DNA of 64,000 bases. Source: an uncultured virus (IMG/VR IMGVR_UViG_3300011334_000440). Taxonomy: Duplodnaviria > Heunggongvirae > Uroviricota > Caudoviricetes. Every line of letters starts with the position of its first letter. The first letter of the stretch is position 1. This document shows positions 5,234-60,393 of the stretch, piece after piece. Under the pieces are notes generated by a model. The model made no database searches. It was not told where the DNA came from and saw only the letters and a program-made list of their open reading frames with translations. Position numbers and translations under genes: made by a program. The stretch is from the IMG/VR virus record IMGVR_UViG_3300011334_000440. One strand, 5' to 3'.

Positions 5234-5238
5234 AGTTA

Positions 5239-35661: not shown

Positions 35662-35683
35662 AAAACGAAAGGACACAGTAAGT

Positions 35684-37907: not shown

Positions 37908-38039
37908 ATCGTTAACCTTAAGTTTACTTTTGGTTAACGCAATGATGGACTGCGTTCCTGATAAGTTCTGGCCTGTGTGGGCTAGACCTGGGAACGACAA
38001 CATCATATCCAGAATTAAAATATTTGGAGAAAGGCACGT

Positions 38040-38258: not shown

Positions 38259-38479
38259 ATTGTTATTGTATTACAAAACCAACGGAACAAAAGTTCCTAT
38301 CGATCGATGAGAAATGGGTAGACTTTATCACGGGTATTCGTGAAGATTCTATCCGAGGCTACACCTCCGAGGAGATGGAGACCTTGAATAACGATGCAAC
38401 GAAGCATGGAGGCGAGGTGCGACAGCATCCGTCTCCCGACGGAGTCACACTTCCCTTGTTTTATGACTGGGGTACGTGA
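38255..38479 (+). CDS. Hypothetical protein
   Basis: AGGAG SD, ATGA-coupled. Confidence 0.5.
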   Translation: MNCYCITKPTEQKFLSIDEKWVDFITGIREDSIRGYTSEEMETLNNDATKHGGEVRQHPSPDGVTLPLFYDWGT

Positions 38480-39101
38480 AGTATTTGAGGGACTGAAGTC
38501 CCGAGAGGTTAGCCGTTACGTCAACTACTGGGACAAGATTAAGCCCAAGTCCCGTGAAGACGAATGGCGCTTCTGGATTTTCTCGATTCTCGCGGCCAAC
38601 TTCGGTTGGAAGCAGAACGTGAAAGCCTTTAATGCAATCAAGAATCGCGACTCGTGGAAGTCCGACCTTGGCAAGTTACAGTTCGAACTGTATCAAACCA
38701 AGACTGGACTGTGGCGGACAAAGGCCGTGAGCATCTGGAAGTTTGACCAGATGTTCTCAGCCAAGCCCCACATCTTCGAGCGTTATCCCAATGAGCCGTT
38801 GATGCAATACCGTGATAGGATTGCAGACAACGTACCAGGATTAGCGATTGCTAAGTCAAGCTTCTATGTGGAAATGAAACATCACGAGGAGTCAAACGTT
38901 GTTTGCCTCGATCGTCGTGTGCTCAAGTCAATCCACAAGAGGGACAGGAACGTGAACAGGACTGACTACCTCGCGCTTGAGAACGAGTGGCAGATCTGCT
39001 CACAGGAATACGGTATCCCAGCGGCTACCGCCAGGTTCATCTGGTGGGATAAGTTGCAGGGGTATAAAAATAGTCGGTACTGGAGTGAGGTATTAGAATG
39101 A
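38463..39101 (+). CDS. HhH-superfamily DNA glycosylase-like protein (Ogg/endonuclease III-like)
   Basis: FSILAAN, R..I..NVPGLAIAKSSF (HhH with Lys), VCLDRRV (Asp), Y...E. Confidence 0.6.
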   Translation: MTGVREVFEGLKSREVSRYVNYWDKIKPKSREDEWRFWIFSILAANFGWKQNVKAFNAIKNRDSWKSDLGKLQFELYQTKTGLWRTKAVSIWKFDQMFSAKPHIFERYPNEPLMQYRDRIADNVPGLAIAKSSFYVEMKHHEESNVVCLDRRVLKSIHKRDRNVNRTDYLALENEWQICSQEYGIPAATARFIWWDKLQGYKNSRYWSEVLE

Positions 39102-42941: not shown

Positions 42942-43238
42942 TTAGTATTTCCCCTTTCGGTTTGAAGGACTAGATTGAGTCGAGCCACCGGGTCCAGCCC
43001 ATAAATTTTTACAAGCCCAATACTTCGCGCTTAACTTAGTCCCGGGGTTATCGCAGTTATGGCGAGCTCGGAAAGATTTGCGGGCGGCCGCCGAATAGTT
43101 GTGTCCATATCCTTTAGCCCCAAAGTGTACGAGCCTCTCCTTGCCACCCTCACAGGCTTTGACCATACGCTTCTTACCTGGCCTTGTGCTAGGCCGAGGT
43201 TGATTGCAGGGCATGCTGGCTTTTCCTAGACCCGGCAT
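42942..43238 (-). CDS. Small basic protein starting MPGLGK
   Basis: 'VHFG..GY...RKSFRARH.C...SA.YWAC..LW' recurrent phage motif. Confidence 0.75.
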   Translation of the reverse strand: MPGLGKASMPCNQPRPSTRPGKKRMVKACEGGKERLVHFGAKGYGHNYSAAARKSFRARHNCDNPGTKLSAKYWACKNLWAGPGGSTQSSPSNRKGKY

Positions 43239-43795
43239 TATCTTTCTCCCGCTCCGCCAGCGATCTTCGAATCTTTGATTCTTTGCCCAATAACATTTGG
43301 ATCGAGCATCATCTTACTAACGTCCTTATAAATGTTCTTCATAATACCAGCGTACTTATTGGGATCCTCTGTAAAGTATCCAGCTTTACCCATCATCCTA
43401 GCATAAGACTCTGGGTCTTTTTGTTTGACGGCTTCTTGGTATCTCTTGGACTTTAGAAACTCTGGCCACTGTTGAAAGAAAGCGGAGGGTGACTCATAAG
43501 CCGCAAACTTGCTTTTCTCCATGCGTCGGTTAGCTCCGTAACCTTCGGCGGATTCAGCTTCGACGGATGGTTGACCTGGCTTTGCTTTTACACCAGCAAA
43601 ATTGTTGGCCTGCATTGCCAGTCCTGACTTTCCCCAACCAGACTCCAGAGCTGTTTGACTTAGTAAAAGTTTCGGGTCCATTCCAATCCGTTCACCAGCA
43701 ACAACGGCATCAGCGGCAGCTTTCTTGAAGTAGTCAATCTTCTTCTGGTATTCCGGACCATAGGTACTACGGAAATATTCGTTTAGATCGGCCAT
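43238..43795 (-). CDS. GH73 (FlgJ-like) glucosaminidase/muramidase, probably virion-associated
   Basis: QTALESGWG, NNFAGVKA, GYFTEDP.Y motifs. Confidence 0.85.
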   Translation of the reverse strand: MADLNEYFRSTYGPEYQKKIDYFKKAAADAVVAGERIGMDPKLLLSQTALESGWGKSGLAMQANNFAGVKAKPGQPSVEAESAEGYGANRRMEKSKFAAYESPSAFFQQWPEFLKSKRYQEAVKQKDPESYARMMGKAGYFTEDPNKYAGIMKNIYKDVSKMMLDPNVIGQRIKDSKIAGGAGER

Positions 43796-43808: not shown

Positions 43809-46800
43809 TTACTGTCTTTCTGGATACAAGATACCTTCTTGATTTTTCTCAGAAAGAACTTGATATAGAATTGCTTTTTTAATTGGATTTACGATTGACC
43901 GTGTCACCTCTCTAAACTGACCCGGGCTCATTGCTTCCAGTTGAGGGATGAATTGCGCTAGTTGTTCTTGAATAATCGGGCCAGACCTCATCATCCACTC
44001 ATACTTCTCATCTGTCGATAGCTCTCGTTTGAGATTGTAGAAATCATCGGCTGTCAACTGCTCGCCCTTGGCTTGAGCATCCTGAATCATCTCAAGCATG
44101 GCGAAGTCTTTGAGAGGGCCAGCATCCCAATCCAATGAGGAACGCTTGGACGCAAACATGGAAATGAGCTTATCGTGAATTGCCTGCGGGGTTCTATCCC
44201 CATCGTCATAAGCTTTAGAGTCAACGCCCGTAGTTGTTAGTCGGCGCCAGAAAGGAATGGTGTTCGTTAACTGTGTTTTGGTATTGCCACCGAGGAAATT
44301 AAGATCTGGTCTACCAACCTTTGAAGCAAAAGGAACAGACTGAGCAAACGTAGATAGAAGATTTTGTTGATACGGACGAGCGGAGGGTGAACCATATATC
44401 CCATTGAATACCTGCTCAAAATCTCGAAGAGTTGCGTAGCCCGGGATCAAACCTCCAGCGACGTTGCCCAAGGTTTTACTTAAATTGGTCATGATGCCCA
44501 TTGCATCTCGTTGTCCAACCCCTGGAGAAGTAAGCGACATTATCTGACGGATTCCAGAAAGAGCCGCCATGTCTAGAACACCATACATAGCGAGGAGCGC
44601 TCCGGTGCCACCCCCCAATAGGATAGACTCTGCCACGGATCGTTTCTCATATCGGATAGATTCGGTAATAGCGCCCGCGAGAAGCAGAGGTCCGGATAAC
44701 CCAACCGGAAAAGCTTCAAAACTAAAGAATGCTGGTTTACCTTGGCTGAATCTCCCCAACTGAATGGAGCGAAGTTTTCCTCCCGCGGCGAAGAAGGCTT
44801 CGCGTTGAGCTGGATCTGCCGGTCCCTTGAAGTGAATGTTGAAATAGGGGTCATCTTCTCCTCCCATAGCTTCCTTAAGGAGGAAGAAAAGACCGGTGGT
44901 AATGGCATATCCGGCCCACATTTTTCCAAGCAGAAGATCGTGTTCGACTGTCCCCGGGACGGCTGGGGGGCGGTAGTATTTGGTGTCCTTCAGACTAGCT
45001 GCGGAGCCACGATACAATCTTACGGTGGACATCAAGGGGAGAAAATTTAAAACTTCATTGGCCAAGCTTGATCCAGTTTTTAAGAACTTGATAAACAGCC
45101 TTAGTGGCCACGCCTTGGCAGAGATACTTGTCAAGCCATCGGCAAGCAATCCGAACCATCCTTCAAAGTTATTTGTAAATGTAGACTGAGCCGCAAAAGT
45201 TTTTGCCTTCTCTGTTAAATTTTTAACGATCTCTTCATCCGGCCTACCCTGCTCCAAAATCTCTTCTACACGTAAGGATTCCTGCTCGGGTGTTAAGTTA
45301 AATTCTTTTGCCTCGGAAGCGGCCTTGGCTTCTGCACGCTTTCTGGCTTCGGGGCTTTGATTTAAAAGGCGAGCAACTTCGGTTTCAATCTCATCGTTTG
45401 TCTGGAGACCTTGCGCGATTGCAATGTTGGTGGCTTCTGCAATCTCATACATTTTGCGGGAAGAAATTTTATTGATTGCGTCACCAGCCGCCATAGCCCG
45501 ACCGAAGAAAATGAACGGGGCGAGGGCTCCGTACTTACTGCTAAGATACTTAGAGTCTAGTGGGATTCGGTATTCCTGGCCAAGCACATTTACGGGCAAC
45601 TCAGGTTGAACAGCTCCAGGTTTACCCGCTCGGTAATCTTCTCCTTGTTTTACAATCGCTTCCCAGATATTGACTCCGCCCAATTCCTGGGTCAAAGCAT
45701 CTTGAATATTTGAATAATCTCCGTTAAAAAATACATTAGCAGCCGCGTTTAGTGCTGGTTTTTCTCCCACAAAAATAGCTGAGTTAAGGGCTATTGCTGC
45801 GTCTATGTAGCCTTTAGCCGTTGCCTTGTCTCCCCGGGCTCCTTTTATCCAACCAACTGCACCCAGAAGCGCAGCATTGAGCTGATTGCTCATGACCGAT
45901 GACCAAGCATTAATTCCAATTGTCCCGACTCCAGCTAACAAGTTAGAAGTTTGGTAGTTTACCAGTAACTCTCCCCACACTTGAGGCGATACCAACTTTA
46001 CATACTGATACATATCAGAAATCTTTTTGTTTCGAATCATTCCGACCGGATAGAGGGGTAGGTCTTCAATTAACTTATTGAGCTTCTTGCGTTCTTCTTC
46101 TCTAAGCTCGGGTAACCCAAGTTGAGAATGCATCTGCGCAAACACTTCGCTATCTGTTAAAACCCCAAGGTTAGTGGCCTCAATCAATCTATCTAGAGCT
46201 GAACGCATCTTGCGCGTCTTCTTTTCTTTTTTCGCCTCAAACCCTTTCTTAATTCTCTCGAGTTCCTTCTTACGCTCGCTGGCAATAAGCTCAGTCAAAC
46301 CTTCGCGCAAAAAGTCGGTTACTTCTTTCTTCTGTGCTTCGTTGAGTGTTGTGTTCTGAGTGAGCAACGCGCCCATTTTATTTTCAAAATCCATGATATC
46401 GCCCTTGCTCGAGCGTATGAGACCACGAACATTTGTTTGGGGTCCGCCAATTGATTCAAGGGATCGAACTGCCTGCTTTAGGCTTGATACTGTAAACGGA
46501 CGGCCAAAGGCTTCGTCGATGAAGGGCTCGAGGCCAGAAAGTTCCTCTTCGCTATAAACTTCTTTTAAGGAGTCGCGCACATTGTCGATGAACTCCATGA
46601 CGTCGGGATACTTTTCAATCCTATCTCGAAGAACTTCAGCTTCAGTTGGCTTTGGCTCTGGTGTATAGGTAGGTTGAAGCCCACCCTGTTCCTTTGTCCT
46701 CTGCGCGATCAGTCTGCGAATTCGGGCGGCAAACTCTTCGAGCTGATCTTTTTTCTTTGGCTCTTGTTGGAGACGGGTTGCTTGCTTTTGCAAAGCTTCT

Positions 46801-49800
46801 GCTGATGCCTCCGCCAAAGCTTCGAGCCTTGAGCTAGCTTCGGTCGGGATTGCAACAGGAGCCTGATCTTTGGCCTTTGCCTTGGCGTCGATAACACGAC
46901 GGATCGCTTCTCCCCGGGTTGCGGGTGGCTGAATGCCTTCACGGGCGCGGGCTTCTCCGAGAGCCTGAGCCGAGAAAATTTCAAGAGCGTTAGTCAGGGC
47001 GGCGTCAAAATAAAGATCGAGTTTACGGCGAACGTTTTCTTGATTCTTGGCATCACGCAAAGCTGGTGTCAGCATAAGCAAACTTTTAATCTGATCTTCG
47101 GAAGCTGCCGTTACGCTAGGGTTCTCGGAGCGTTTAATGATCTCAAGTATCATTCGGCTCAGTGCGGTGGTTTGTTCCGGGTTAAGGCGAATGCCATCAG
47201 CATCACTTCCCTCAACTTCAGGTGCGGCGGCGAGATCCGCCCCAAGAAACTTGGATCCATCGGCTACTGCCTGCTCACTGCTAATATATTCTGCTACTGC
47301 CACCTCTAGTTCCGCAACAGTTGCTTCCTTTTTATTTAGTTCGACAATCTTCATAAGCTTTTCGATAGTCGACTTAGTCTTTTTACTCGTGATCAGTTTT
47401 TCTACGGCCCGACGACTTGAGTCAATAAGACCAGAAGAAATGTCGCTTTCTTCATTTGCAAATCCGGCTAATCTTCCCCGAATCGCAGAATCAATTTGTC
47501 TTCCAACGAACATCTTCATGGCTTCTGGATTGTTAGAGAGTTCGCCAAGCGCGTTCCATAGATCAATGGTGCGTCCGGGTTCGGTTCCATATTTCTTGCT
47601 TAATAAAAGCATTACCTCTGCCAACTGTTCCTTAGCGTATAAATCTGTCTTGGCTTTTTCTCCGAGGGCCTTGGCTAACTCAAATCCAATTGCGCCCTGC
47701 AACGGTAAAGAACTCTTGATGTTTCCACTCAAGAAAGCACTAAGAGAATTCTGTACACCGTTAGTTGCTATGTAAGATCTGGCATCAACAAATTGTTGAT
47801 CGCGAGGTATTGATTGATAATACCAAGCATCCAATAATTTATCTTTCTTTTCCCCTTCGGGTAGCACGTCAACAAACTTGGTGATGATATTCTTTATAGC
47901 TCGGCTCTCGCGAATCTCGGGGGCTGGCGCCGGAGAAATAACTTTGGCAAACTTCCCATACCCAGCATCACGAAGAGCTGCAATTAAAGGGCCTGGGCTA
48001 GTATAACGTTGGCCGTTATAGTTAACTACTTCCTGTCGTTCAAACAATCGGATAACGGCATTGGCTGTAGCCTTCGCTTCCGAAGAGGCTGTCGTTGGGA
48101 CGGCTATGTTGCCGGGAATCTTAACACGATACTGTTGGTATGTTGGTTCAGTCTCAAAGCTTTGTTCGTTACTGGTGACTTCAGCGGGTGCGGAAGTTGC
48201 AACAAAAGCTGCGACAGGCAACGACCTTCCAGCTTCTTCCATATTCTCCGCCAACTCAAGGGCTTTATTGGCAATGGCTGGAAGACTTGCCCGGCCTCCG
48301 TCCATGACGGCTTGAGTTGCAGATCGGAAAAGATCCCTCTCGTCAGCCGTAATAATCCCACGGCGTCGGCTAATATCGAGAGCATCTAGCCACTCCTCTA
48401 CGCCAACGGTCTTGAATAAATCGTCAGCAACCGTTACTCCAAGTACGCCTTCAGTTCTTCCCTCAAGATGATTCTCAATCATGCGGTAGATTCTTAGGTC
48501 ATAAGAATCAAATACGGTTGATGGACGCGGAGCAGTTGGAGAAGTGCCGGGGGCTGGAGCTGGTATAGCTAGAGTCTCTCCGGCTTGAATAAATTCGCTT
48601 GATGTTTTGCGTAGGGAAGAGATTGCTTCCTCGATGCTTTGACGCATTACCAATCGATCCTTTGCGTTCGGGGCCAATCCTAATCCACGCTTGACCACTG
48701 TAGCCATGCTGTCAAACCACACGCCAAGTCTCGCAAGAACAGATTTATTCTCCGATTTTAAAATATCCTTGAGACGCTGAGTCGCCCGAGCAATGTCGTT
48801 TGCATTAATAGAGCTAACTTGCTCTGTGATACCACCTGTTAATTTCAACTGGGATAGCTGACGAATTCCCTCCATGGCTACAAGATAAGAGTTATTCGAC
48901 AGAGCTTTGATTTGTGCTTGCACACTGGGGTTGGTAATGTCGGACCCTAAGGAAGAGTGGTAAAGTCTTCCAATCGCTAGTTTGGAGGCTTGTGACAGCG
49001 AGTCACCGATTGCGGTGAGTTCTTCTATAGGATCAAGACCAAGCTCGCGGTAATACCGGAGCGTCTCCATGTGGATTGTTTCTTCGATCAATGCCTGAGT
49101 CAAATAAGATTTATAAGCTTCAGGAGAAAGTCTATTCTTTCCTTTCTCTAGAAGTGTTGGATTCATTACAATAGTGTCAGAATCATTATCTGATCCAACA
49201 ACAACAGCCATCGAGTGGGTGAAGTTAGGATCAATTCTTACGTTGTAGTTGTGAGCTTGGCCCTTGGCATCGCGGAATGTAATTACATTGTTGTTGTAAT
49301 CTTTTCCGAGAACTGACTTTAAAATGTCATCGGTAGTTGTGATTTGTTCAGGTGTTGCCTCGACTGTGGACTTTACTGGAGCTACAGTCTCGGTAGGCTT
49401 AATTTCTTCAGCCTTCAGACCTTCAAACCCAGCACCAGTGGTGGCATCCAATAAGCGAAGCTTGGCTCGCATCCTGTCAATGTTCTGCTGATCGACCTCG
49501 GCTTTTGATTCCAAGAAGATAAGATTGGGTCGGCTTGCGCTATCAGTACGCCATACCCGATAAACAAGCTGAACGGCCTGAATCGCGCTGACGGGTGGCG
49601 ACATGATAATCATATCCCGAGGCTTGTCGCCGAACTTATCATCCAACTCAATTCCAGTCCCGCCCATCTCCTTGGTGGCGATCAGAACATCAGCTGCATT
49701 CTCATTGAAGGCGGCCAAGGCTTGTTCTTTTGTCTGGCCCGATCCTGTGTACATCTTTGCAATTCTTAGATCTGGAGCAAGACGAAGGATTGCCGCCTCT

Positions 49801-52800
49801 ACCGCAGCTGAAGTAGGGTCAACCGTTTCTCCGCGGGCATTTGTCTCAGAAACAAATCCTACATAGATAACTGGCTTTCGCCCTTGGCGAATAGATTTGA
49901 TTGCCCGTTTCGCTGCGGAATCTACTTTATATTCTTCTAGTGCGCGTTTCTGGGCAGATACTAGCTTTCGCAATGAAGCAATGTCGGTATTCTGTGTACC
50001 GCCATACATGTTCTTAATATCTTCAAGTTGCTTGGTGATCGCGGAATCAAGTGGAACATCTTGGAACTCGACATTTACTCCGTCCAATTTGAGTGAGCGG
50101 GAACGCAGGATTCCATTCTTTACCAGTCCGTCAAGATAAACCTCGAGACGATCTTGCATCTCTGTTTCGGTAACTCCAGGCGATAGCGTCCAATAAGATT
50201 TCTTTCCGCCCCGAAGATATTGTTTTTCAAAACCAAGTCTCTTGATCAAGGCATCGGGGGATTCGGTATCAAAAATACCAAGTCGGCCAAGCGAAAGAAG
50301 CTGATCGGGTGTTTCAAACGGAGTTCCAGAAGCCATCAATACCCTACCGGCTTTCTGTGAAATATCATTCATCAAGATCGACCAGGCGCGGCTCTTGCCC
50401 TCTTGAATTGCTTTGTGCAGATTCCGTCCGGAATGTTGTTCGTCAAAAATAACAACCGTCTTTGCGTCTACTAACGGAAGAATATTTTCTAAATACTGTG
50501 AGGTGTAAGTTGAGACAACTACTTTTCCGGGCACATTCTCAATCGGAAGACCGCGACCACTCTCACCTTTACCTCCACGAGCGGCAATCGGAACGCCCAT
50601 CAATCCCGCATCTTTCTCAATCGAACCGCCAATTGTGTTAAGATCCCAGTTCGGAGTTACCGCATCGGGGGCCGTCAAATAAAATACATTGAATCCTTTG
50701 TTGAGATAGTATTTAGCTGTTGCTAGTAATACTCGAGTCTTGCCAGTTCCGGGACCATTAGCCAAGTAAAAAGCTTTGTGCTTGGAGCTTTCCATCGTGG
50801 TGATGGATGCCGCCACATCTTGCTTCTGTTCGGGGGATAAAAGTCTGACTGTATCCGATCCAATCGGATCTAGAACTTTCTCGCTGTAAGGTTTGCCTAA
50901 CTGGTTGCGGGATTCGACGAAGGACTTTGGGATGGGGACGCCACGAGCGCGTTCAGCTCCAGGTCTCCCGACTCCGGTTGCCCCACCTGTAACAGCTGGT
51001 CCCACTTCTTTCCGCTCAGGGGGAACGGTTTCTTTAAGAACTCGCTTTGTGATGGCAGCACGTTCGGCTTGGATTTCAGCGAGTTTCTGGCGAGCTTCCT
51101 CACGTCGATCATCGGCTGTTTTGGCTTGGGGTTTTGGGGTTGGTTTAGTTGTTGGTTCTTCATATGTTCCCTCCTCGTTTATTTTAATTCCGCTATCGGC
51201 CAGAATCTGGTCGTTGACCTTTAGCAGATTTGATCGGAAGGTGGCGGCAATATTATTCTTTGCCTGACCCTCTTCCATTGTTTGAGAAGCCAGATAAGGC
51301 TCCGCAAGTTTGTTTAATTTGTCGATATAGTCATCGGACTGGGCCTTGGAAATGTTTCCGTCATCGAGGGAGGTTTTTAAATTGCTATCGACAGCCTCGG
51401 ATAATTCGGTGATGCTCTCGGGAGAAAGTTTAGAATCTACTGTAGATTCCAGAAATCCCTCGAAAGCTCGCAGCATATTAACGGAGCGGGAGGTTTGAGT
51501 TTGCTCAAGTAAAGCTTTGGCTGAAGCTAGTTCCACATCATCAAAGAAATCATCGGCCTGAAGTTTTCGGAACCGCTCGATTGCCGGCTGAATTTGTTTA
51601 GCCGTTAGATTTCCTTCGCGAACAATTCCTTCTGGTTCCACGACTTCTCGAACTGGAAGAGTTCCAGCTTGCTGATTCTTACGGAACTCGGCCTGTAATG
51701 CCGAAACAAACTTCTGCTGAACGGCCGGCTTTAGCGCATTGATGTTGTCAATGGTAGTCCCAATCTTAGCTGCATCCTGAGCGCTGGCTCCTTTACCGGA
51801 AGCAACGGAGTCAAATGCGAGTCTCTCCGCTTCCGTCCCTAGGGACTGCCTAAAGGGAGCTTGGAGATTCTGGGCGAGAATGGATAGGGCTTCCTGCCTC
51901 TGAGCTGGCGAGGGAACGTCAGAGGGACTGGTAATTTGGTTATCTACTTCTGTGGCACCAATCTGATCTAGAGCTTCGTTGATAGCCCCGGCTACAGCGG
52001 GATTGATTCCCTGCTCTTCGGCCAGAGTCTCGGAGTCGACGGCGTTTACCCGAAGTCCTGGAGTCTCAAGGCTGACAGCCGCGCCAATGCCCACACCAGC
52101 CCGCATCCGGGGAACTGCCCTGCGGATAAAATCGCGGAGTCGGCTATTAAAGATCGTGCTTAAGGATAGATTGTTCTTGCCCTGTCTAAGTTCGTATAAG
52201 AAGCTGTTGATCGTCGCGGCGGATACTTCATCTGCAATATTGTATTTTTGATATCCGGCGAGAGACTTACTTTGCAAATAAGATTTCTTGCGATTTACGT
52301 AAGCCAGAAGAGTTTCGGCTGGGGTCATTATGTTGCGACCATTCTCATCAATCGCGCCAAGACTTTGGAGTAGCTCGATTGTCGCGGGATTCTTTAAGTT
52401 AAATACGACGCCAAGGGCTTGGCTCGAATTCTCTCGATCGTCCGGCTCAAGCTTTTGGTATTTCTGGAAAGCCTCGCTTTCGGGATTATTGATTGGCAGG
52501 ACGATATCCGGTCTAGCCTCCAATTCGGGGGCAAGCTCACCGGTTCTAGCTTCTTTTGTGGCTTCACTCTCGAATTGCTGAACTAATTTAGATACCGACT
52601 CTTCTCCACGGACTAGACGGGCGGCCTGTCCCTCAACCTGCATGGCCTGAAGTCTTGCAAGTTGTTCCCGCATGGCGACGGCTTCATCCGCTGGAGCTTC
52701 TTTTATTTTGGTCTCAAGAACATTGATTTGATCTTGAAGTTTTTTAGCGTTGATCTCTGCTGGTTTCTCCTGCTCAATCAGCTCTTGGCCTTTAGCTAGC

Positions 52801-54929
52801 TGGCTTTCTAGAGCAACTTCATAATCGGTTGGCCCGAGATATTTTCGGGCAACTTCCTCGATGGCATCATCCGTTCCAGCTTTCTCAAGCTCAGAATTCA
52901 TCTGATCAATCTCGTCAGTCTCAAGCCCGATCTCTTCCGCTCGCATGACAAACTGATCCTTCAACTCTTGCTTAAATTCAATTGCTGGAGTTCCCTGTAA
53001 CCAATTACCGGCGTCCGTTTTTACATTGGTTACTGAATAGGTCTTTCCATCCTCAGACAGTTCACCAATGACACGACCCTGACTCTCGAGCCACTGAATC
53101 TTCGAAGCATTGGCCGGAGAATTATCCAGCTCGATGGTCGTGGCGCCTTTCTCAAATACACCAATCAACTCATTAAGTGCAGAAAGTTTTTCTTCTTCGG
53201 TTTCAGGAACTCTGGTTTCAATAGTTGGCGGTACACCAATCTGTCCCTCCGCTTTTGTAATCTCTTGCGAAAGCATGGATTCAACCGATCCTTGTTTAGC
53301 AGATTCTACTGCTTCATCTGCTACCTTTGTTGTCTCGGGAGTGGTTACCGTATCAAGAGAAGAACGAACATTGACGGCGTCAAAGAGGGCTTGGGCTTTC
53401 GGGGAAGTTAAAGACTGACGAAGCTGGGTCATTTGCTCCATCTTTTGTTGGTCATTAAGATTTGGATCAACCTTAATGTTTGATACTGTTTGCTCTAAAG
53501 ATTTTGCAAATCGATCGTCTGCTAGTTTATATATCTTGGCTCGACGAACTGCGATAGAGGCGGCTCCGGCAACTCCTGGGATCGCCATGCCGAGTCCAAT
53601 ACCTCCCGATACAGCCAAGTTCTGGAGCAGGGGCTCAACGGGATCTTGCCCACGTAGGATGGCTTCAATTTCTTCTGATGCGGTTTCTCCGAGAGTAGTT
53701 CCCACCACTCTGCCCGTGCTCCCAACTAGGGGGGCTAACGCAGGAATTTTCGTGGCCAAGGCTTTTGCGGCTACGTGGTTGGCCAGAGCGTTATCGATCG
53801 AGTTTTCTAATTTGTTTCCAGCTCCTTCAGCTAAACCCAGAACAGCACTCTCGCTGAATATGGAGGACAAGCGTTGGGGGACGGTTAGATTCCGTGGGTC
53901 GCCCTCGAAAGATTGCGATGCTCCGATGGTTGCATACGTTGCTCCCTTGGATAGAACAGTCGGAACTTTAATAGCTTGATCCGCAATCTGGCCAGCTTTA
54001 CCCAATAACTTTGTGGCGCCAGCACCAACTCCAATAAACGAACCCACAGATCCGAGGGCTGCCCCGGCAAGAGTCCCAGTCATGTAATCTTTTTGAATTG
54101 TATTGTTGATCGAGTTTGATAGGGCGGCCCGGCGAGCAACCTGATCGGGATTGTTCTCGTCAACTATGATGTCACCGAGAGAAACAAAAGGTAGGAAGGC
54201 GTCGCCGGATTGAATCGCAAAGTTTCGCAGGCTGGCTGATCCCAATTTTTTAGAACGATCGCTTTCGAGATCCCGAAGATAGTTTTCGGCCATTGCCAAA
54301 TTCATTCCAAGCTTGGCTGTTAGAGGTCCTGTGCCGAAAGCCATCCCCGGTTTTTCGTCCTTAGGGGCAATTGATTTTCCGCTAGTTAGTTCGTCTTCGT
54401 AAAAATTTCCAAGCTCCAAAGCTTTGGCTGCCTGTGCTGGATCGGTGATTGTTCCTACATAGTTACGGGCAGCAAAACTTTTTTGCGTTGCTTCAGCCTC
54501 CTCATTTGTAATCCCAAGGCCACCTTGCAAGTAAGCTCCAATAGTTTTACCAACACCAAGAAGGGCAAGTTTGGTTAGTTCACCCCAGTCACCTTTTTTC
54601 TCTGCATCTAAAATCTTTTGGTTGGACTCAATCGAATAGTTACGGACATTGTTTTGAACGTCTTCCCAAGCCTGAGTGTTAAACGGAAGTTTCTTTTCCT
54701 TAAATCGCGTAGCCAGTCCACCTATGAGATCGGTCGACTGCGGGTCATCCCTAAGGGCAATTAGATTTTGAGCTTGAGCCAAGTTAGTGGGCGGGGCTGA
54801 AAACAGAGAGTTAATCTCTTGCTCGGGGGTAACTCCGGAAGGAGCAAACAAGGCGTCAATAGCTTGTTGCTCACCCTGGGGGAGACTAGCTATATCAAGC
54901 TCTGTCTCGGGGTTAAATGGATCCGCCAT
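43809..54929 (-). CDS. Giant internal virion/ejection protein (3706 aa), polyvalent type, with SF2 helicase module
   Basis: Follows tail and internal virion genes; internal GPGTGKT, IFDEQH, SGTP, GGTGIEL, QLVYRVWR; EETIH zincin-like motif; long helical C-terminus. Confidence 0.8.
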   Translation of the reverse strand: MADPFNPETELDIASLPQGEQQAIDALFAPSGVTPEQEINSLFSAPPTNLAQAQNLIALRDDPQSTDLIGGLATRFKEKKLPFNTQAWEDVQNNVRNYSIESNQKILDAEKKGDWGELTKLALLGVGKTIGAYLQGGLGITNEEAEATQKSFAARNYVGTITDPAQAAKALELGNFYEDELTSGKSIAPKDEKPGMAFGTGPLTAKLGMNLAMAENYLRDLESDRSKKLGSASLRNFAIQSGDAFLPFVSLGDIIVDENNPDQVARRAALSNSINNTIQKDYMTGTLAGAALGSVGSFIGVGAGATKLLGKAGQIADQAIKVPTVLSKGATYATIGASQSFEGDPRNLTVPQRLSSIFSESAVLGLAEGAGNKLENSIDNALANHVAAKALATKIPALAPLVGSTGRVVGTTLGETASEEIEAILRGQDPVEPLLQNLAVSGGIGLGMAIPGVAGAASIAVRRAKIYKLADDRFAKSLEQTVSNIKVDPNLNDQQKMEQMTQLRQSLTSPKAQALFDAVNVRSSLDTVTTPETTKVADEAVESAKQGSVESMLSQEITKAEGQIGVPPTIETRVPETEEEKLSALNELIGVFEKGATTIELDNSPANASKIQWLESQGRVIGELSEDGKTYSVTNVKTDAGNWLQGTPAIEFKQELKDQFVMRAEEIGLETDEIDQMNSELEKAGTDDAIEEVARKYLGPTDYEVALESQLAKGQELIEQEKPAEINAKKLQDQINVLETKIKEAPADEAVAMREQLARLQAMQVEGQAARLVRGEESVSKLVQQFESEATKEARTGELAPELEARPDIVLPINNPESEAFQKYQKLEPDDRENSSQALGVVFNLKNPATIELLQSLGAIDENGRNIMTPAETLLAYVNRKKSYLQSKSLAGYQKYNIADEVSAATINSFLYELRQGKNNLSLSTIFNSRLRDFIRRAVPRMRAGVGIGAAVSLETPGLRVNAVDSETLAEEQGINPAVAGAINEALDQIGATEVDNQITSPSDVPSPAQRQEALSILAQNLQAPFRQSLGTEAERLAFDSVASGKGASAQDAAKIGTTIDNINALKPAVQQKFVSALQAEFRKNQQAGTLPVREVVEPEGIVREGNLTAKQIQPAIERFRKLQADDFFDDVELASAKALLEQTQTSRSVNMLRAFEGFLESTVDSKLSPESITELSEAVDSNLKTSLDDGNISKAQSDDYIDKLNKLAEPYLASQTMEEGQAKNNIAATFRSNLLKVNDQILADSGIKINEEGTYEEPTTKPTPKPQAKTADDRREEARQKLAEIQAERAAITKRVLKETVPPERKEVGPAVTGGATGVGRPGAERARGVPIPKSFVESRNQLGKPYSEKVLDPIGSDTVRLLSPEQKQDVAASITTMESSKHKAFYLANGPGTGKTRVLLATAKYYLNKGFNVFYLTAPDAVTPNWDLNTIGGSIEKDAGLMGVPIAARGGKGESGRGLPIENVPGKVVVSTYTSQYLENILPLVDAKTVVIFDEQHSGRNLHKAIQEGKSRAWSILMNDISQKAGRVLMASGTPFETPDQLLSLGRLGIFDTESPDALIKRLGFEKQYLRGGKKSYWTLSPGVTETEMQDRLEVYLDGLVKNGILRSRSLKLDGVNVEFQDVPLDSAITKQLEDIKNMYGGTQNTDIASLRKLVSAQKRALEEYKVDSAAKRAIKSIRQGRKPVIYVGFVSETNARGETVDPTSAAVEAAILRLAPDLRIAKMYTGSGQTKEQALAAFNENAADVLIATKEMGGTGIELDDKFGDKPRDMIIMSPPVSAIQAVQLVYRVWRTDSASRPNLIFLESKAEVDQQNIDRMRAKLRLLDATTGAGFEGLKAEEIKPTETVAPVKSTVEATPEQITTTDDILKSVLGKDYNNNVITFRDAKGQAHNYNVRIDPNFTHSMAVVVGSDNDSDTIVMNPTLLEKGKNRLSPEAYKSYLTQALIEETIHMETLRYYRELGLDPIEELTAIGDSLSQASKLAIGRLYHSSLGSDITNPSVQAQIKALSNNSYLVAMEGIRQLSQLKLTGGITEQVSSINANDIARATQRLKDILKSENKSVLARLGVWFDSMATVVKRGLGLAPNAKDRLVMRQSIEEAISSLRKTSSEFIQAGETLAIPAPAPGTSPTAPRPSTVFDSYDLRIYRMIENHLEGRTEGVLGVTVADDLFKTVGVEEWLDALDISRRRGIITADERDLFRSATQAVMDGGRASLPAIANKALELAENMEEAGRSLPVAAFVATSAPAEVTSNEQSFETEPTYQQYRVKIPGNIAVPTTASSEAKATANAVIRLFERQEVVNYNGQRYTSPGPLIAALRDAGYGKFAKVISPAPAPEIRESRAIKNIITKFVDVLPEGEKKDKLLDAWYYQSIPRDQQFVDARSYIATNGVQNSLSAFLSGNIKSSLPLQGAIGFELAKALGEKAKTDLYAKEQLAEVMLLLSKKYGTEPGRTIDLWNALGELSNNPEAMKMFVGRQIDSAIRGRLAGFANEESDISSGLIDSSRRAVEKLITSKKTKSTIEKLMKIVELNKKEATVAELEVAVAEYISSEQAVADGSKFLGADLAAAPEVEGSDADGIRLNPEQTTALSRMILEIIKRSENPSVTAASEDQIKSLLMLTPALRDAKNQENVRRKLDLYFDAALTNALEIFSAQALGEARAREGIQPPATRGEAIRRVIDAKAKAKDQAPVAIPTEASSRLEALAEASAEALQKQATRLQQEPKKKDQLEEFAARIRRLIAQRTKEQGGLQPTYTPEPKPTEAEVLRDRIEKYPDVMEFIDNVRDSLKEVYSEEELSGLEPFIDEAFGRPFTVSSLKQAVRSLESIGGPQTNVRGLIRSSKGDIMDFENKMGALLTQNTTLNEAQKKEVTDFLREGLTELIASERKKELERIKKGFEAKKEKKTRKMRSALDRLIEATNLGVLTDSEVFAQMHSQLGLPELREEERKKLNKLIEDLPLYPVGMIRNKKISDMYQYVKLVSPQVWGELLVNYQTSNLLAGVGTIGINAWSSVMSNQLNAALLGAVGWIKGARGDKATAKGYIDAAIALNSAIFVGEKPALNAAANVFFNGDYSNIQDALTQELGGVNIWEAIVKQGEDYRAGKPGAVQPELPVNVLGQEYRIPLDSKYLSSKYGALAPFIFFGRAMAAGDAINKISSRKMYEIAEATNIAIAQGLQTNDEIETEVARLLNQSPEARKRAEAKAASEAKEFNLTPEQESLRVEEILEQGRPDEEIVKNLTEKAKTFAAQSTFTNNFEGWFGLLADGLTSISAKAWPLRLFIKFLKTGSSLANEVLNFLPLMSTVRLYRGSAASLKDTKYYRPPAVPGTVEHDLLLGKMWAGYAITTGLFFLLKEAMGGEDDPYFNIHFKGPADPAQREAFFAAGGKLRSIQLGRFSQGKPAFFSFEAFPVGLSGPLLLAGAITESIRYEKRSVAESILLGGGTGALLAMYGVLDMAALSGIRQIMSLTSPGVGQRDAMGIMTNLSKTLGNVAGGLIPGYATLRDFEQVFNGIYGSPSARPYQQNLLSTFAQSVPFASKVGRPDLNFLGGNTKTQLTNTIPFWRRLTTTGVDSKAYDDGDRTPQAIHDKLISMFASKRSSLDWDAGPLKDFAMLEMIQDAQAKGEQLTADDFYNLKRELSTDEKYEWMMRSGPIIQEQLAQFIPQLEAMSPGQFREVTRSIVNPIKKAILYQVLSEKNQEGILYPERQ

Positions 54930-54964: not shown

Positions 54965-56527
54965 TCAACGATTTTGTCCTGATTCGTCATATTGTTTTCC
55001 CGGTGAAACCACGCTAGAGGGAAGATCGACTCCGGGAATGGTGTATCCCCGGGCTTTTAGGGTTGCCAAAATCTCTCGGGCCGGTCTGCCGTAGATAACG
55101 GCATTCGGGTCTCGGCGATACGCTTCGGCAATGGTGGCTATAGTGGAATCCAAAATTTGGGTTGGTTGATTTCTTGGGGTTATTGGAATGGAAGCGGTTC
55201 CCGATGTTCTGGGGGCTGTCCCTCCGGGAGCAGTTGCTACATTCGAAGAATCGTTGGGGATGAACTCGAGTTTCTTTATGTTCGGATTGGCCGGGGCTTC
55301 GGAGAGTGCTTTCCCGAGCATAGCTTGCATTGCGTTATAATCTCCACTCATTGCCCTAGTTAACATCTGATCGTAGTCAACAATTTCTTTTTGTTTGACT
55401 TTTGTTAACATCCCGGTTCTTCGGTCGATATCTCTATCGGTAAGGTTCATGTTGGGCATGGATCTCACAAAAGTTGCCCTCTTCTCTCCGGTGATCGGAT
55501 CGGTCGTCTCTACTCCTAAACTTGCGTTCTTCTGCACCAAGTTTTTTTGATCGACAGTAAATTTTGTTTTCATCTCGTCGAGATATGCTTGCTGACTGTC
55601 CTTAGTGATATCTTTTGCGAGACCACTAAGCTGATAGAAAGCGTCAGGATTCTCAATTCTGTCTTTCCAATTCGGAAACTGTTTCTTAATAACATCGTAT
55701 CTGGCTTGGTATTTTGGGTCGAGAATATTTCCAGCTGCTCCGTCAGAATTTAACTGTGTGATACCATTAAGTACTGCATCATCGCGTAGCTTTGCTAAGG
55801 CAGCATTTGTTTTAGCCACAGCCTCAGAAAATTTATTAACTGTAGTATCTGTCATACCAAGACTGGCAAACTGTGCCTCAATGTCATTTAGTGCCGCACT
55901 TACATCGTCAGGAGCCATACGATCAACGGGAAGATTTGATACCCTTACTAGAAGTGCGTCGGCTTGCGGTTTTTTTTGTCTATTAGCTACTAGGTCATCG
56001 ACCTTTCGTTTTCTTTCCTCGGCGATATCAAGCCTGTCGAGCATTGTCATTTTTGTTAGACTTGACAGAGCTGTATTGTCGAGTGCCGCTTCAGCCATGG
56101 CGATCTGGTCCGGATCCCCGGAATTCCTCGCATCTCGAATATAAGAATAGATTCTCCCCGACTCAGCATCTTCTTTATTCTTTCTGTCAATCTCGTCTAT
56201 CTTTTGTCGTTTTTCTTCTTGCGCGAGCTCAAATTGATCCGACGCTAAGCGATCGGCTGCGGCTTGACGCTGTCGATTGTAAGCAAGACTTTCCAATTCG
56301 CGTTGATTTTTTATACCCTCAAGTTCAATTCTTTGGCTATCGAGATCGGCTTGCCTGGCTTGATTATCTCTTTGAGCCGCAAGTTGAGCATACCCTAAGC
56401 TTACTTGAGCTGTCGCCTGTTGTTCTTGTTGAAACAACTGCTGCTTTTTTAAATAGTCCTCGCGAAGATCTCCAATGATTCCGCGGACCTGACTTACATA
56501 ATCCGGAGCGTTAGGTGAGAGAGCCAT
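54965..56527 (-). CDS. Putative internal virion (ejection) protein, coiled coil
   Basis: Q/A/R-rich helical protein directly upstream of the giant gene. Confidence 0.6.
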   Translation of the reverse strand: MALSPNAPDYVSQVRGIIGDLREDYLKKQQLFQQEQQATAQVSLGYAQLAAQRDNQARQADLDSQRIELEGIKNQRELESLAYNRQRQAAADRLASDQFELAQEEKRQKIDEIDRKNKEDAESGRIYSYIRDARNSGDPDQIAMAEAALDNTALSSLTKMTMLDRLDIAEERKRKVDDLVANRQKKPQADALLVRVSNLPVDRMAPDDVSAALNDIEAQFASLGMTDTTVNKFSEAVAKTNAALAKLRDDAVLNGITQLNSDGAAGNILDPKYQARYDVIKKQFPNWKDRIENPDAFYQLSGLAKDITKDSQQAYLDEMKTKFTVDQKNLVQKNASLGVETTDPITGEKRATFVRSMPNMNLTDRDIDRRTGMLTKVKQKEIVDYDQMLTRAMSGDYNAMQAMLGKALSEAPANPNIKKLEFIPNDSSNVATAPGGTAPRTSGTASIPITPRNQPTQILDSTIATIAEAYRRDPNAVIYGRPAREILATLKARGYTIPGVDLPSSVVSPGKQYDESGQNR

Positions 56528-56530
56528 TGC

Positions 56531-57532
56531 TTATCCCATTATTCCGAAAGGTGTTTGTCTTTGACCGGGGGCAAGAGGTCTAGTTGTGACTCTTGATCCC
56601 GGTTGATAACCAACGAAAGAACCAGTCTTAATATCGAACTGACCGGGCAGAGCTTGAGTCTGATAAGCATTAAGCAAGTTCTGGTTGGCAATCTGTTGAT
56701 TGACGGAGGCTTGGTTGGCCGCCGTATCAAATACACTGCCAACAGCAATCGGAGTCATAGCCTGCATCGCTTGTTGCGCCAACATGGAAGACTTACTCAA
56801 CAGATCCGCTCCTTGCTGCTGAACTTGCAATGAGCCCAATCCTAAATCACGGGCCAATAGATTGCGCCCAATTCCGGACCTACCACCAAGACCAGAGCTG
56901 AATCCAAGGGCCGCGGCTCCACGTCCAATCTGCCCAACCATATCACGAGAAAGTTGGCCAGTGGCCATCGTGGCTCCGGCTTGCGATAGTGCTCGTGTTC
57001 CGGCTTCAGTCTGCGGGGCGAACTGTCTATACTGTTCCGCAAAAGGTTTGTTAGCTTCCATGGCTCTCTTGCCCATCTCTTCATAGTTAAGATTCAAGTC
57101 CGTTAAGGTTGGGGCTGGTCCCAAATAAAACTCTAAAGGTGCGGGTTGTCCCATAGAAATTGCTCCACCACCTCCTCCTCCGCCACCGCCCCCTCCGCTC
57201 CTCGGTCTGCTCCCTCCGCTAATCCCGCTTGGATTATCTCGTTGAGAGGCCGCCGCTCGTGCAGTAGCAATTCCGGGTCCAGTATATGTTTTATTGAAAG
57301 CGTCTTGTTGCGCCCTCCATTCGTTCCAATTTTGGCCTGGAGCGCGGGGAATTTCTCCGTAGGACATACTTGCTGGATTCCTAGATTCTTGTAACGAACG
57401 GTCATATGAGTATTGTTCATAGGATTTACCTGAACCCATGAAATTGCCGCTAGGACGATTGGTTGCCCCGGAAGATCCCCCGGAATAACCTTTCGCAGCA
57501 TTCGCAAAAATTGAACTATAATCAGTCGCCAT
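56531..57532 (-). CDS. Putative internal virion (pilot/ejection) protein, Gly/Gln/Ala-rich
   Basis: Low-complexity N-terminus, poly-Gly linker; synteny with podovirus ejection genes. Confidence 0.55.
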   Translation of the reverse strand: MATDYSSIFANAAKGYSGGSSGATNRPSGNFMGSGKSYEQYSYDRSLQESRNPASMSYGEIPRAPGQNWNEWRAQQDAFNKTYTGPGIATARAAASQRDNPSGISGGSRPRSGGGGGGGGGGGAISMGQPAPLEFYLGPAPTLTDLNLNYEEMGKRAMEANKPFAEQYRQFAPQTEAGTRALSQAGATMATGQLSRDMVGQIGRGAAALGFSSGLGGRSGIGRNLLARDLGLGSLQVQQQGADLLSKSSMLAQQAMQAMTPIAVGSVFDTAANQASVNQQIANQNLLNAYQTQALPGQFDIKTGSFVGYQPGSRVTTRPLAPGQRQTPFGIMG

Positions 57533-57535: not shown

Positions 57536-58777
57536 TTATGCCATCGCGGGGACTTCACCCATCGCGAATGCCTCCATTTGAATCTGGGGTCTGCCAATGT
57601 TAGCTCCTTCGACCTCTTTGAGTTCTTCACGCAAGAGTTCGACAGCCTTCTCCTCGTACTTCATGGCTTCGTCCAGGTTATTGTTTTCTTCTTTTTCGAT
57701 GGCTATCGCCATCATCTTTAAAGCTCCTAAATTGGTCACGATCAAATCGTCGTCATCGGTAATCACGGGGATAAACTTACGCTTCGCAAGCACGGTCACG
57801 GTAACACCTTCTTCTCTTTCATGACCAGGAATTGCATATCGTCGATACTGGGGCAACGTCTCGTCGGGCGCAAGTATGGCGATACAGTATTCAGCGCCCG
57901 TGGTCGGATCGACTGCATAGACGCGGACCCAACCTTTCGTTGCAGTTTTGTTTATTGCATCGATGGATCGGAAAGCATTAACTGTGGTGCGGGGGAGTTC
58001 TGTGAAAGTTCCATAATCCCAAACAGATAACCATGGGTAAGCGGCAGTAGTGCCAAGACTTACATCTTCGCTATAAAGTCCCGTATAAACACTACTAGTA
58101 ATATACCAAGTCAACCCAGGATCGACAGCCATCGTGACTTCATCGGTAGGATCTTGCTGGTTTATAAATTTATATTTTGGATAACCATTTTGCGTGCCAA
58201 TCCAAAAATAAACTCCATTGTAGGGAGCTCTTCCCCCAGTTAAACCAGAAACCAACACGCTGGAATTACCAGACCCAGCACTCAAGTTCAAACGCTCACC
58301 ATCAATGTAAGCTCCATTTTCCTGAGTCTGGACTCGGTTGTTGTAGGTATCCGATCCACGGAACAAAATGGTTGAGGTAGCGTCTTCAATTAGGTCAGTA
58401 TATACGCGGATATATTTTTGAGACTCAATCGAACGAAAGCATGGTACATAACCCCTGTCTTGCAATTGTCTCCACGCCCCGGCGGGGGACATTCCCGGAC
58501 CATTAGCCATAAACTCATACCACTGGTTATAAACTTGGGCGGCCGCGCCGTCGTAGTTATATCCCAAAATAGTTTCAAACTCGCGGGGCAACGTAATACA
58601 TCCACCATAAACGCAAACGGAATAACGCCCATAAGTTCCGGCGTACAATCCCTTATTGAGTAAACGTTCTTGGGCTTCGTTGGTGCGTGCGAGCAACTGA
58701 GGATCAGTCGCGCACATCCCGTTCTGGGTAACGCGGGCCAGTTGTTCTTTAACCGATCCGTAAGTACGACGGATCAT
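57536..58777 (-). CDS. Putative tail adaptor (tail tubular protein A-like)
   Basis: N-terminal helices '...NEAQERL', C-terminal 'A...EE.A...L..E' pattern; tail gene context. Confidence 0.5.
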   Translation of the reverse strand: MIRRTYGSVKEQLARVTQNGMCATDPQLLARTNEAQERLLNKGLYAGTYGRYSVCVYGGCITLPREFETILGYNYDGAAAQVYNQWYEFMANGPGMSPAGAWRQLQDRGYVPCFRSIESQKYIRVYTDLIEDATSTILFRGSDTYNNRVQTQENGAYIDGERLNLSAGSGNSSVLVSGLTGGRAPYNGVYFWIGTQNGYPKYKFINQQDPTDEVTMAVDPGLTWYITSSVYTGLYSEDVSLGTTAAYPWLSVWDYGTFTELPRTTVNAFRSIDAINKTATKGWVRVYAVDPTTGAEYCIAILAPDETLPQYRRYAIPGHEREEGVTVTVLAKRKFIPVITDDDDLIVTNLGALKMMAIAIEKEENNNLDEAMKYEEKAVELLREELKEVEGANIGRPQIQMEAFAMGEVPAMA

Positions 58778-59199
58778 TCGTAATACCCCACGTATACCTT
58801 ATACTGCGCGTTTGTCGGAGCTACGGGAAGTGTCGGGGTCAATCTTGTAATCCCGTCCACAACATAAGTTGTATTTCCGATCCCCCAAGGTGACGAAACT
58901 GTGGCGTTGGCGTCAGTTAAAACGATATCACCAAAATTAAAAGGTGAGAATTCTTTCCACGAGCCCTCAGTATAAAGTCTTATTGCTTTTGGGAATCCCG
59001 CAACTCCGGCTTCTGTTTGAAACCAAACCTTATCATTGTCTTGCGAAGACGGGGTAGCACCAGAAACAACAACTGAACTAAGATTTGAGCCTGCATTTAC
59101 AGAGAGATATGACTGCAATAGTTGCAACAGACCCTGCATATTGGCGGGATATCCGGTGTTCTGGGGGACGGTACCAGCGGATATTGTGTAAACGGCCAT
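58774..59199 (-). CDS. Tail-associated protein, paralogue 1
   Basis: Colinear similarity with 59233-59685. Confidence 0.6.
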   Translation of the reverse strand: MAVYTISAGTVPQNTGYPANMQGLLQLLQSYLSVNAGSNLSSVVVSGATPSSQDNDKVWFQTEAGVAGFPKAIRLYTEGSWKEFSPFNFGDIVLTDANATVSSPWGIGNTTYVVDGITRLTPTLPVAPTNAQYKVYVGYYE

Positions 59200-59208
59200 A
59201 GCTTAATT

Positions 59209-59236
59209 AGATTAACGTGTTGCTATTTTGTGTCAA
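59209..59236 (-). promoter_or_regulatory. Promoter TTGACA-N16-TAATCT, 9 nt before ATG 59199
   Basis: Near-consensus boxes; -35 overlaps upstream stop codon. Confidence 0.6.
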
Positions 59237-59685
59237 CTCTTTGAATCCCAATACCCAATATATGTTTTATACTTAAGTCCGTCTGGCGGGGTGGGGGCTG
59301 CGGTTGGGGTATAATTTGGTAGACCCGTGTCTAGGGGAAAGCTGTAGGTAAATCCTTCCTCACCCCAAGGCGGGGATATAACTGCTTCTGCCGAAACAAG
59401 AATCCTATCTCCTTGGGACAATTGAGCGAATTCCCTCCACTCCCCATTCACATATGATCTTACTACTTTTGGCTCTCCGTATCCGGATACAGACTGTTTT
59501 GTTTGGAACCACAACCTCCCCTGATTCGTAGCTATTGGGGCCAAATCACTAACAGTATAAGACTGCGGGTTGCCGGGAATATTAAGCGTTGTGTAACCAG
59601 CGACAAGATTCAAGAGGGGCTGAATTGTAGGAGGGTAACACGTATTTGCCGGCACGGTTGCCATAGTTAGGGGATATTCGTTCAT
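59233..59685 (-). CDS. Tail-associated protein, paralogue 2
   Basis: Colinear similarity with 58774-59199. Confidence 0.6.
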   Translation of the reverse strand: MNEYPLTMATVPANTCYPPTIQPLLNLVAGYTTLNIPGNPQSYTVSDLAPIATNQGRLWFQTKQSVSGYGEPKVVRSYVNGEWREFAQLSQGDRILVSAEAVISPPWGEEGFTYSFPLDTGLPNYTPTAAPTPPDGLKYKTYIGYWDSKS

Positions 59686-59702
59686 AAATTAGACTATAAT
59701 GT

Positions 59703-60392: not shown

Positions 60393-60393
60393 A

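Follow-up and report, generated by a model that had tools for sequence, protein, structure and literature searches.

A giant open reading frame closes an ejection-type gene block

The window, i.e., the whole 64,000-nucleotide stretch of viral DNA that we analysed (IMG/VR record IMGVR_UViG_3300011334_000440), holds a giant open reading frame at the end of a block of three genes (Table 1). An initial annotation, made from the sequence alone, had reported a 3706-aa frame at this place without naming the strand; we found it free of stops, on the minus strand. The genome of this uncultured phage was assembled as one contig, 65,968 bases long, whose ends overlap by 136 bases, and is therefore probably complete. 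The sequencing runs that contain the stretch are labelled as river and lake metagenomes.

Table 1. Features of the giant gene and of its neighbours in the window (aa, residues of the giant).
Feature	Residues	Positions	Strand	Basis or remark
333-aa gene, gp14 slot		56531..57532	minus	cysteine-free, Gly/Ser/Ala-rich; no family match
520-aa gene, gp15 slot		54965..56527	minus	cysteine-free; fast-evolving; no family match
Giant open reading frame, 3,706 aa		43809..54929	minus	largest and last gene of the three-gene ejection-type block; 0 Cys
N-terminal module	aa 1-470	53520..54929	minus	conserved, Gly/Ala-rich; 15% invariant columns
Acidic variable middle	aa 471-1354	50868..53519	minus	no notable family match
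SF2 ATPase, Strawberry-notch-like, both RecA lobes	aa 1355-1835	49425..50867	minus	motifs, Pfam, conservation
Walker A GPGTGKT	aa 1392-1398	50736-50756	minus	
DEQH	aa 1496-1499	50433-50444	minus	
SGTP	aa 1534-1537	50319-50330	minus	
GGTG	aa 1756-1759	49653-49664	minus	
Motif VI QLVYRVWR	aa 1787-1794	49548-49571	minus	
Linker and cassette hot spot 1	aa ~1840-1870	49320..49412	minus	empty in query
Zincin-like domain	aa 1870-2110	48600..49322	minus	motif conservation; 0 Pfam matches
EETIH	aa 1949-1953	49071-49085	minus	
Glu2020	aa 2020	48870-48872	minus	invariant downstream Glu
Two small conserved segments	aa 2135-2330	47940..48527	minus	conservation among relatives
Pro-rich linker and cassette hot spot 2	aa ~2333	47895..47957	minus	empty in query
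Charged spacer, probably helical	aa 2340-2680	46890..47912	minus	composition; common mainly to the clade
C-terminal module, putative ejection module	aa 2681-3706	43812..46889	minus	profile homology to internal virion protein D / Syn5 gp45 (phrog_6651)
185-aa glucosaminidase		43238..43795	minus	PF01832, E 6e-23; directly behind the giant; cysteine-free

The neighbours of the giant were in part, and the tail genes entirely, named by position only. On this basis, the 333-aa gene, whose counterparts in relatives have 331-723 aa, is a candidate outer-membrane pore, and the 520-aa gene a candidate periplasmic tunnel. A 769-aa frame without family match was taken as the portal, also by position. The glucosaminidase is optional, as it is found in the loci of some relatives and missing in others; it may be an endolysin, or may take over the wall cutting that T7 gp16 performs with a domain of its own. 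We compared the gene order in 27 loci, some of them duplicates, and found that the succession of an adaptor candidate, a small gene, a gene of ~520 aa, and the giant is conserved wherever the loci cover it. None of the 8 frames of 550 aa or more in the genome encodes an RNA polymerase of the T7 type or any other.

To collect relatives, we used aa 1340-2110 as a query and retrieved 66 proteins, among which 53 (query included) have 47-100% identity and lengths of 2,045-4,629 aa. Contigs from two further river runs span 30/30 and 29/30 bins of the giant gene without frameshift. Because of these matching proteins and contigs, an assembly artefact is excluded as the source of the giant gene. For the analysis of conservation, the 53 proteins from this search of the helicase-zincin region were joined by five more distant full-length members found with the C-terminus, giving a family of 58.

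Other searches had negative outcomes. One RNA run reached 7/30 bins, with divergent contigs, and gave no evidence of expression; promoter and terminator scans stayed at or below chance. GTDB contigs gave no link to a host or prophage, NCBIfam and PADLOC added nothing, and viral contigs scanned with the distant family gave no loci. With tblastn, the 50,697 phage records gave no match for the 471-, 644-, and 413-aa genes, and no isolated phage among them matches the helicase-zincin region. In the PDB, neither the protein nor two profiles had a meaningful sequence match, nor did the MW202801 protein, Syn5 gp45, or ProddE protein D; the best matches were designed repeats or had E > 0.008.

The SF2 ATPase and the zincin-like domain

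The initial annotation had placed a complete set of SF2 motifs at about 49440-50860, where we located all of them; an equally ordered set occurs in 0/1000 shuffles. Once excised, the region scores above the Pfam cut-offs of AAA_34 (30.9 bits for a cut-off of 27) and ResIII (30.8 bits for 22.5), which bears out the proposed likeness to Strawberry notch and places the domain in the SWI2/SNF2 group of SF2. In one relative, P0047, AAA_34 reaches up to 38.3 bits. The C-terminal lobe matches Helicase_C_4 at 16.8-19.7 bits, below the cut-off of 30.5. At the sequence level, Pfam gave no match behind the helicase to SnoC-wHTH, the winged helix named by Iyer et al. The Lys of Walker A is invariant in the 55 rows that cover it, as are the Asp-Glu of Walker B (56/56 rows) and the Gln and both Arg of motif VI (58/58). 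When compared with three close loci (two further ones were saturated), the helicase has a dN/dS of 0.013-0.029, the lowest or near lowest within the protein. The region is thus under strong purifying selection.

The genome encodes another SF2 protein in its replication region (11195-12499). It resembles the C-terminal helicase lobe of the giant with only 25% identity over 169 aa (E 6e-10), and the two are separate helicases, as had been suggested. The comparison with P0042, which is 94% identical to the query in the N-terminus and about 50% in the helicase, reveals that the modules of the giant recombine among relatives.

The second motif of the initial annotation, a zincin-like EETIH near 49070-49090, is also present. 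A hydrophobic-hydrophobic-[HE]ExxH motif is found in 16/1000 shuffles, and hence needs conservation to count. E1950 and H1953 are present in 58/58 family members, and E2020 is invariant in 37/37 rows and also retained in five distant members. The first ligand is Glu in 48/58 and His in 10/58, never another residue, so that ten relatives have the canonical HExxH and the query does not. On a quick tree, the switch between Glu and His, whose codons differ by two bases, needs 5 changes; well-supported branches impose at least 3 of them, and a Glu clade contains two nested His members. This suggests a retained metal site. The zincin region has 5% of invariant columns, the lowest share among the named domains, and no Pfam family match; its profile found nothing outside the clade, i.e., neither among the distant proteins nor in N4 gp50. 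The zincin assignment is thus a putative one, drawn from motifs and conservation. The residue pattern fits a three-stranded sheet and two helices by eye only.

Variable regions and gene cassettes

The N-terminal module has uncharged hydrophobic segments in the family-averaged hydropathy (aa 287-305, 395-413, and 443-461), and is a candidate for the membrane-inserting part. It has no Pfam match, and its neighbours in the Atlas are hypothetical proteins of phages. The variable middle that follows terminates in a Pro- and charge-rich linker (aa 1255-1345).

To assess the diversity of the giants, we counted inserts of at least 60 aa in 52 relatives and found them mainly at aa 1842 and aa 2333. The first hot spot is occupied in 8/52 relatives (84-171 aa) and the second in 16/52 (101-845 aa). 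In the first, locus L002 carries an FtsK-gamma-like domain (PF09397, E 6.6e-5, below cut-off). In the second, P0049 has a GHKL ATPase above cut-off and P0096 an ART-PolyVal domain (E 7e-7). For the ART-like HGT cassette, the sole match was PARP at E 0.056. The labels ParB-like, used for a cassette type of the second hot spot, and GNAT-like are tentative ones drawn from motifs, and Pfam gave no confirmation of them. Several other inserts carry no family name. Hence, the family combines disparate domains in one chain: the SF2 ATPase and the zincin motif, joined in relatives by the GHKL and ART-PolyVal cassettes.

Homology of the C-terminal module to internal virion protein D

The last 857 aa of the giant match 628 clusters at E <= 0.001; in the best 150 of these 628, the match lies near the ends of proteins 343-4,629 aa long. 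A single GenBank record, MW202801, was matched by the C-terminus. Its protein closes a set of three cysteine-free genes that follows a P22-type stabilization gene, and in turn matches 47 phage records that are largely annotated as internal virion protein. Taking the C-terminal 900 aa of 137 distant relatives, we built a profile of this chassis and computed E-values with Z = 1e6. It matches Syn5 gp45 (E 1e-21), HTVC011P D (4e-26), and ProddE D (1e-37), as well as aa 2681-3693 of the query, the latter match being partly circular because the relatives were collected with the query. It gave no match to T7 gp16, other triad proteins, fibre proteins, or four reversed controls. The Syn5 gp45 family, phrog_6651, is matched by 19/23 distant relatives and has no direct match to the query's own C-terminus. 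Taken together, these profile matches indicate that the C-terminal module is homologous to internal virion protein D, with a link that passes via intermediates. The C-terminus that the initial annotation had described as long and helical corresponds to this conserved module. The module has moderately hydrophobic segments at aa 3332-3350, 3407-3425, and 3436-3454 (family-averaged), so that both end modules have such segments, reminiscent of the two membrane regions of T7 gp16 (PMC8954989).

The giant has no cysteine in 3,706 aa, where the composition of 27 other genes in the genome would predict 44, and the 333- and 520-aa genes have none either; 59 relatives have 11 Cys in 226,763 aa. Among the controls, cysteine is absent from N4 gp50 (3,342 of 3,500 aa), gp51, and gp52, T7 gp15 and gp16, Syn5 gp44 and gp45, and HTVC011P C and D; the gp14-type proteins have one and ProddE protein D has three. 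The virion polymerases of N4 and DEV are described as cysteine-free (PMC11445570). Cysteine is equally absent from five further short genes of the query genome. In Syn5, HTVC011P, ProddE, and MW202801, the corresponding protein occupies the same slot, the last and largest of a small-medium-large triad. These data favour the view of the initial annotation that the giant is a polyvalent protein of the virion: the cysteine-free triad, the homology to internal virion protein D, and the exchangeable cassettes suggest this location. Comparable giants were detected in virions, namely JC1 gp69 (PMC9144972) and phi24B gp47 (bioRxiv 10.64898/2026.04.10.717836).

The helicase has a contrasted distribution among the proteins with this C-terminus. 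Within the clade, we scored the best 2,278 candidates of a search with the C-terminus, and the 51 close C-terminus matches are all in the helicase-bearing set, three of them ending at contig ends. An independent C-terminus search found the helicase in 10/10 of the full-length top matches. Among 138 distant carriers of the chassis, an SF2 domain was found in 8 with our own models and in one more by PHROG (9/138), a lower bound; all 8 belong to the 103 proteins with an initial Met and more than 1,500 aa. Sampled distant carriers (26 and 13 proteins) have ART-PolyVal, Kinase-PolyVal, LPD3, 2H/Acb1, or methylase domains, and most of them no named domain. The helicase is thus fixed in the clade and rare in distant carriers. 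Since other domains take its place there, it behaves as cargo on the chassis.

Possible roles of the giant in genome entry

Judging from its sequence and its neighbours, the giant is most likely an ejection protein of the polyvalent class in the gp16 slot. Of the roles that the initial annotation had offered for the helicase, DNA pulling, remodelling, and defence evasion may each apply. We incline, with limited confidence, to a reading in which the giant is ejected third, closes the inner-membrane channel, and brings an active SF2 domain to the incoming DNA, for protection or clearing at an early stage. The giant would be the third and largest ejection protein (the slot of T7 gp16 or N4 gp50) of a short-tailed phage with a Gram-negative host, packed in the head and following the 333- and 520-aa proteins out via the tail. 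At the inner membrane, the channel would be completed by the hydrophobic modules at both ends of the giant, while the middle would refold in the cytoplasm. There, the SF2 ATPase would load onto the entering genome and track along the DNA, and would during the first minutes strip away or repel proteins of the host, such as nucleoid proteins and sensors of the restriction or another type; a pull on the DNA, if any, would be an aid and not the sole motor. The zincin-like domain would bind metal via E/H-E-x-x-H and Glu2020 and would act as a structural or regulatory hinge, as in the N4 virion RNA polymerase, with cutting as an option. Relatives would insert further effectors at the two linkers. 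Some observations weigh against this reading: the lack of cysteine is non-exclusive, the C-terminal link to virion proteins passes via intermediates, and the fixation of the helicase in the clade is more in line with an essential motor than with an optional shield.

Such a motor is the closest alternative. A membrane-tethered SF2 translocase would be dedicated to ejection and reel the 66-kb genome into the cell, a task proposed for the polymerase domain of the N4 and DEV virion polymerases; we consider this role possible and rather unlikely. By analogy, SF2 would sit at the cytoplasmic mouth of the channel as a transcription-independent motor. The N4 layout would then have arisen a second time, on a chassis of the gp16 type, with a helicase where N4 has its polymerase and with a zincin-like hinge whose first metal ligand can be Glu or His; we hold this version to be equally tentative. 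The domain order (membrane N-terminus, linker, motor, zincin, helical tail) and the size are similar to those of N4 gp50 (PMC13434306), and DEV gp71 has been proposed as a pulling motor (PMC11445570). The absence of an RNA polymerase among the large frames, the presence of the helicase in every close C-terminus match as far as the contigs reach and in all the top full-length ones, its retention in P0042 despite the exchange of the block by recombination, and the lack of a methylase partner point in the same direction, and in one relative the FtsK-gamma-like domain lies directly behind SF2. However, this last match is below cut-off and concerns one locus only, the sequence has no homology to N4 gp50, and about 130/138 distant chassis carriers eject without detectable SF2, which means that host RNA polymerase or the chassis itself can suffice.

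We regard as improbable that the giant is a self-cutting polyprotein, in which an active zincin protease would free the helicase and the cassettes once these are ejected, as in the model proposed by Iyer et al. (2017). The catalytic Glu, the second His, and the downstream Glu are all invariant, 10/58 members have the canonical HExxH, the first ligand switches between Glu and His only, and the domain is located between both cassette linkers. Yet the first His is absent in 48/58 members, the region is the least conserved of the named domains, and N4 gp50, which bears HExxH, is packaged uncut (PMC5512222). Self-cleavage is compatible with both preceding readings, to which it can be added as a step.

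It is very improbable that the SF2 module is inactive or a non-hydrolysing DNA clamp. Motif VI reads QxxYRxxR, with Tyr instead of the usual Gly in 56/58 members, while more distant kin retain QGxGRxxR, and the C-terminal lobe falls below the Pfam cut-offs. Nevertheless, the catalytic residues are all invariant, the two remaining members have one Gly and one Met at the Tyr site with the rest of the motif unchanged, and the module is under the strongest, or nearly the strongest, purifying selection within the protein. Finally, in view of the position in the structural block, the cysteine-free triad, and the homology to internal virion protein D, we give almost no credit to a late-made replication or packaging factor outside the virion, which the resemblance of the C-terminal helicase lobe to the replication-region SF2 might suggest.

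To our knowledge, the final pulling of DNA in the entry of short-tailed phages and its energy source are an open question, to which the known answers are host or phage RNA polymerase. A soluble ATPase of 480 residues with intact motifs, fixed in a clade and placed in the putative ejection protein of polymerase-less phages, bears on an ATP-driven alternative. Should the helicase be another early effector, the finding adds neatly to a known class. A large, previously unnamed family of C-terminal modules in 628 clusters is now tied to cultured phages through their internal virion protein D, and the clade provides a natural E/H switch at a zincin ligand.

Comparison with known systems

The giant is similar to the polyvalent proteins of Iyer et al. 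(2017; PMC5512222): it is a large multidomain protein encoded among late virion genes, it combines an SF2 of the SWI2/SNF2-Strawberry-notch type with a zincin-like domain, and its relatives swap cassettes of the ART, GHKL, and FtsK-wHTH types. It differs from them by the lack of the methylase-LPD36 dyad and of any named LPD domain, by a zincin that is mostly EExxH, and, in the query, by two empty cassette sites. LPD38 at the C-terminus (Atlas score 0.96) and LPD22 at the N-terminus (0.93) have low recognition value and no Pfam confirmation, and we retain them as leads only. In the largely open papers that we searched, we found neither an EEXXH metallopeptidase nor an ejection protein with an SNF2 or helicase domain; Iyer et al. 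(2017), whose supplements may list relatives, was the only source for a strawberry notch virion helicase of a phage.

The initial annotation had also likened the giant to P1 DarB, a resemblance that fails on one domain. DarB is defined by a methylase-LPD36 dyad in front of SF2 (Iyer et al., PMC5512222), and neither the query nor the 11 relatives scanned match a methylase family; the NPP[YF]/DPP[YF] motif is missing in 57/58 members, the exception being a single stray DPPF in P0046. Membership in DarB is ruled out by the missing adenine methylase, and because of it the precedent of DarB in anti-restriction does not carry over. Nor is there a DarB-like PHROG match. What the giant shares with P1 DarB and the giants of the Bcep22/JC1 type is that a helicase-bearing giant closes the virion module behind a small gene and one of ~510 aa; in JC1, the products of all three (gp67, gp68, and gp69) were found in virions (PMC9144972).

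With internal virion protein D of T7-like phages from marine and fresh waters (Syn5 gp45, HTVC011P, and ProddE), the giant has in common the C-terminal module, the place of the third triad gene, and little or no cysteine. It is three times longer, however, with enzyme cargo in the middle. Unlike T7-like phages, the query phage has no T7-type RNA polymerase, and T7 gp16 is not detectably similar. N4 gp50 and DEV gp71 are similar to the giant in size, likewise lack cysteine, and share its place in the triad and its succession of domains. The giant has an SF2 ATPase for their polymerase and no homologous module, so the likeness is an analogy only; the lack of a polymerase domain and of homology to N4 gp50 excludes it from the virion RNA polymerases. 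The general design, an ejected polyvalent giant, is already known, and the helicase without its usual methylase partner sets this one apart. To the known class, the present analysis adds a giant that lacks the methylase, a helicase fixed in its clade, the switch between Glu and His at the first zincin ligand, and a chassis tied to internal virion protein D.

Cargo of the giant protein and its relatives

The second lobe of the helicase in the giant protein is similar to the SF2 helicase of the replication region, and the helicase cargo of the giant may derive from the group of phage helicases to which the latter belongs. The cargo of relatives includes cassettes. The 845-aa cassette at hot spot 2, a proline-rich linker of the giant, had no match in a Pfam search. 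In the clade relatives P0049 and P0051, the HEITH of the 700-aa cassette is the second zincin motif of the protein and has the canonical form. Matching by sequence pattern only also revealed EExxH-type motifs in P0102, P0117 and P0119, distant carriers of the chassis (the C-terminal ejection module), and HExxH in many other distant carriers.

Features of the phage (window coordinates unless a locus or protein is named)
Feature	Location	Remarks
Capsid, nozzle, adaptor and portal candidates	3595-9093 and 57536-62328	
Replication-region SF2 helicase	11195-12499	GTG start codon
Trypsin-like protease with PDZ domain	21888-22844	HtrA-like; non-structural arm of the phage
rIIA and rIIB	33319-36535	
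Gp88-family and 8-oxoguanine glycosylase-like genes	37113-39101	
Glucosaminidase	43238-43795	3' of the giant
Small ejection-slot genes (gp14/gp15 slots)	54965-57532	
845-aa cassette, hot spot 2	L033, about 7287-9806; P0046	IEELQSD motif
700-aa cassette	P0049, P0051, aa about 2400-3050	GHKL ATPase and HEITH zincin motif

Affiliation of the phage and variation among relatives

Judging from sequence comparisons, the phage is a member of an uncultured group, since its capsid, nozzle and adaptor candidates had no match in 50,697 phage records and family searches with the portal candidate returned none. It is probably a podovirus, and carries an rIIA/rIIB pair.

The glucosaminidase gene is optional among relatives: it was found in L005, L008, L030, L032 and L033, and is cleanly absent from L002, L003, L004, L006 and one contig of sequencing run X13. 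The ejection block of L006 has one additional cysteine-free gene.

Across loci L001-L032, both small ejection-slot genes diverge far more quickly than the adjoining genes. Identity of the 520-aa gene falls to 26-45% in many loci, where the adaptor candidate is 70-84% identical. This rapid divergence of the two genes possibly reflects adjustment to the host envelope.
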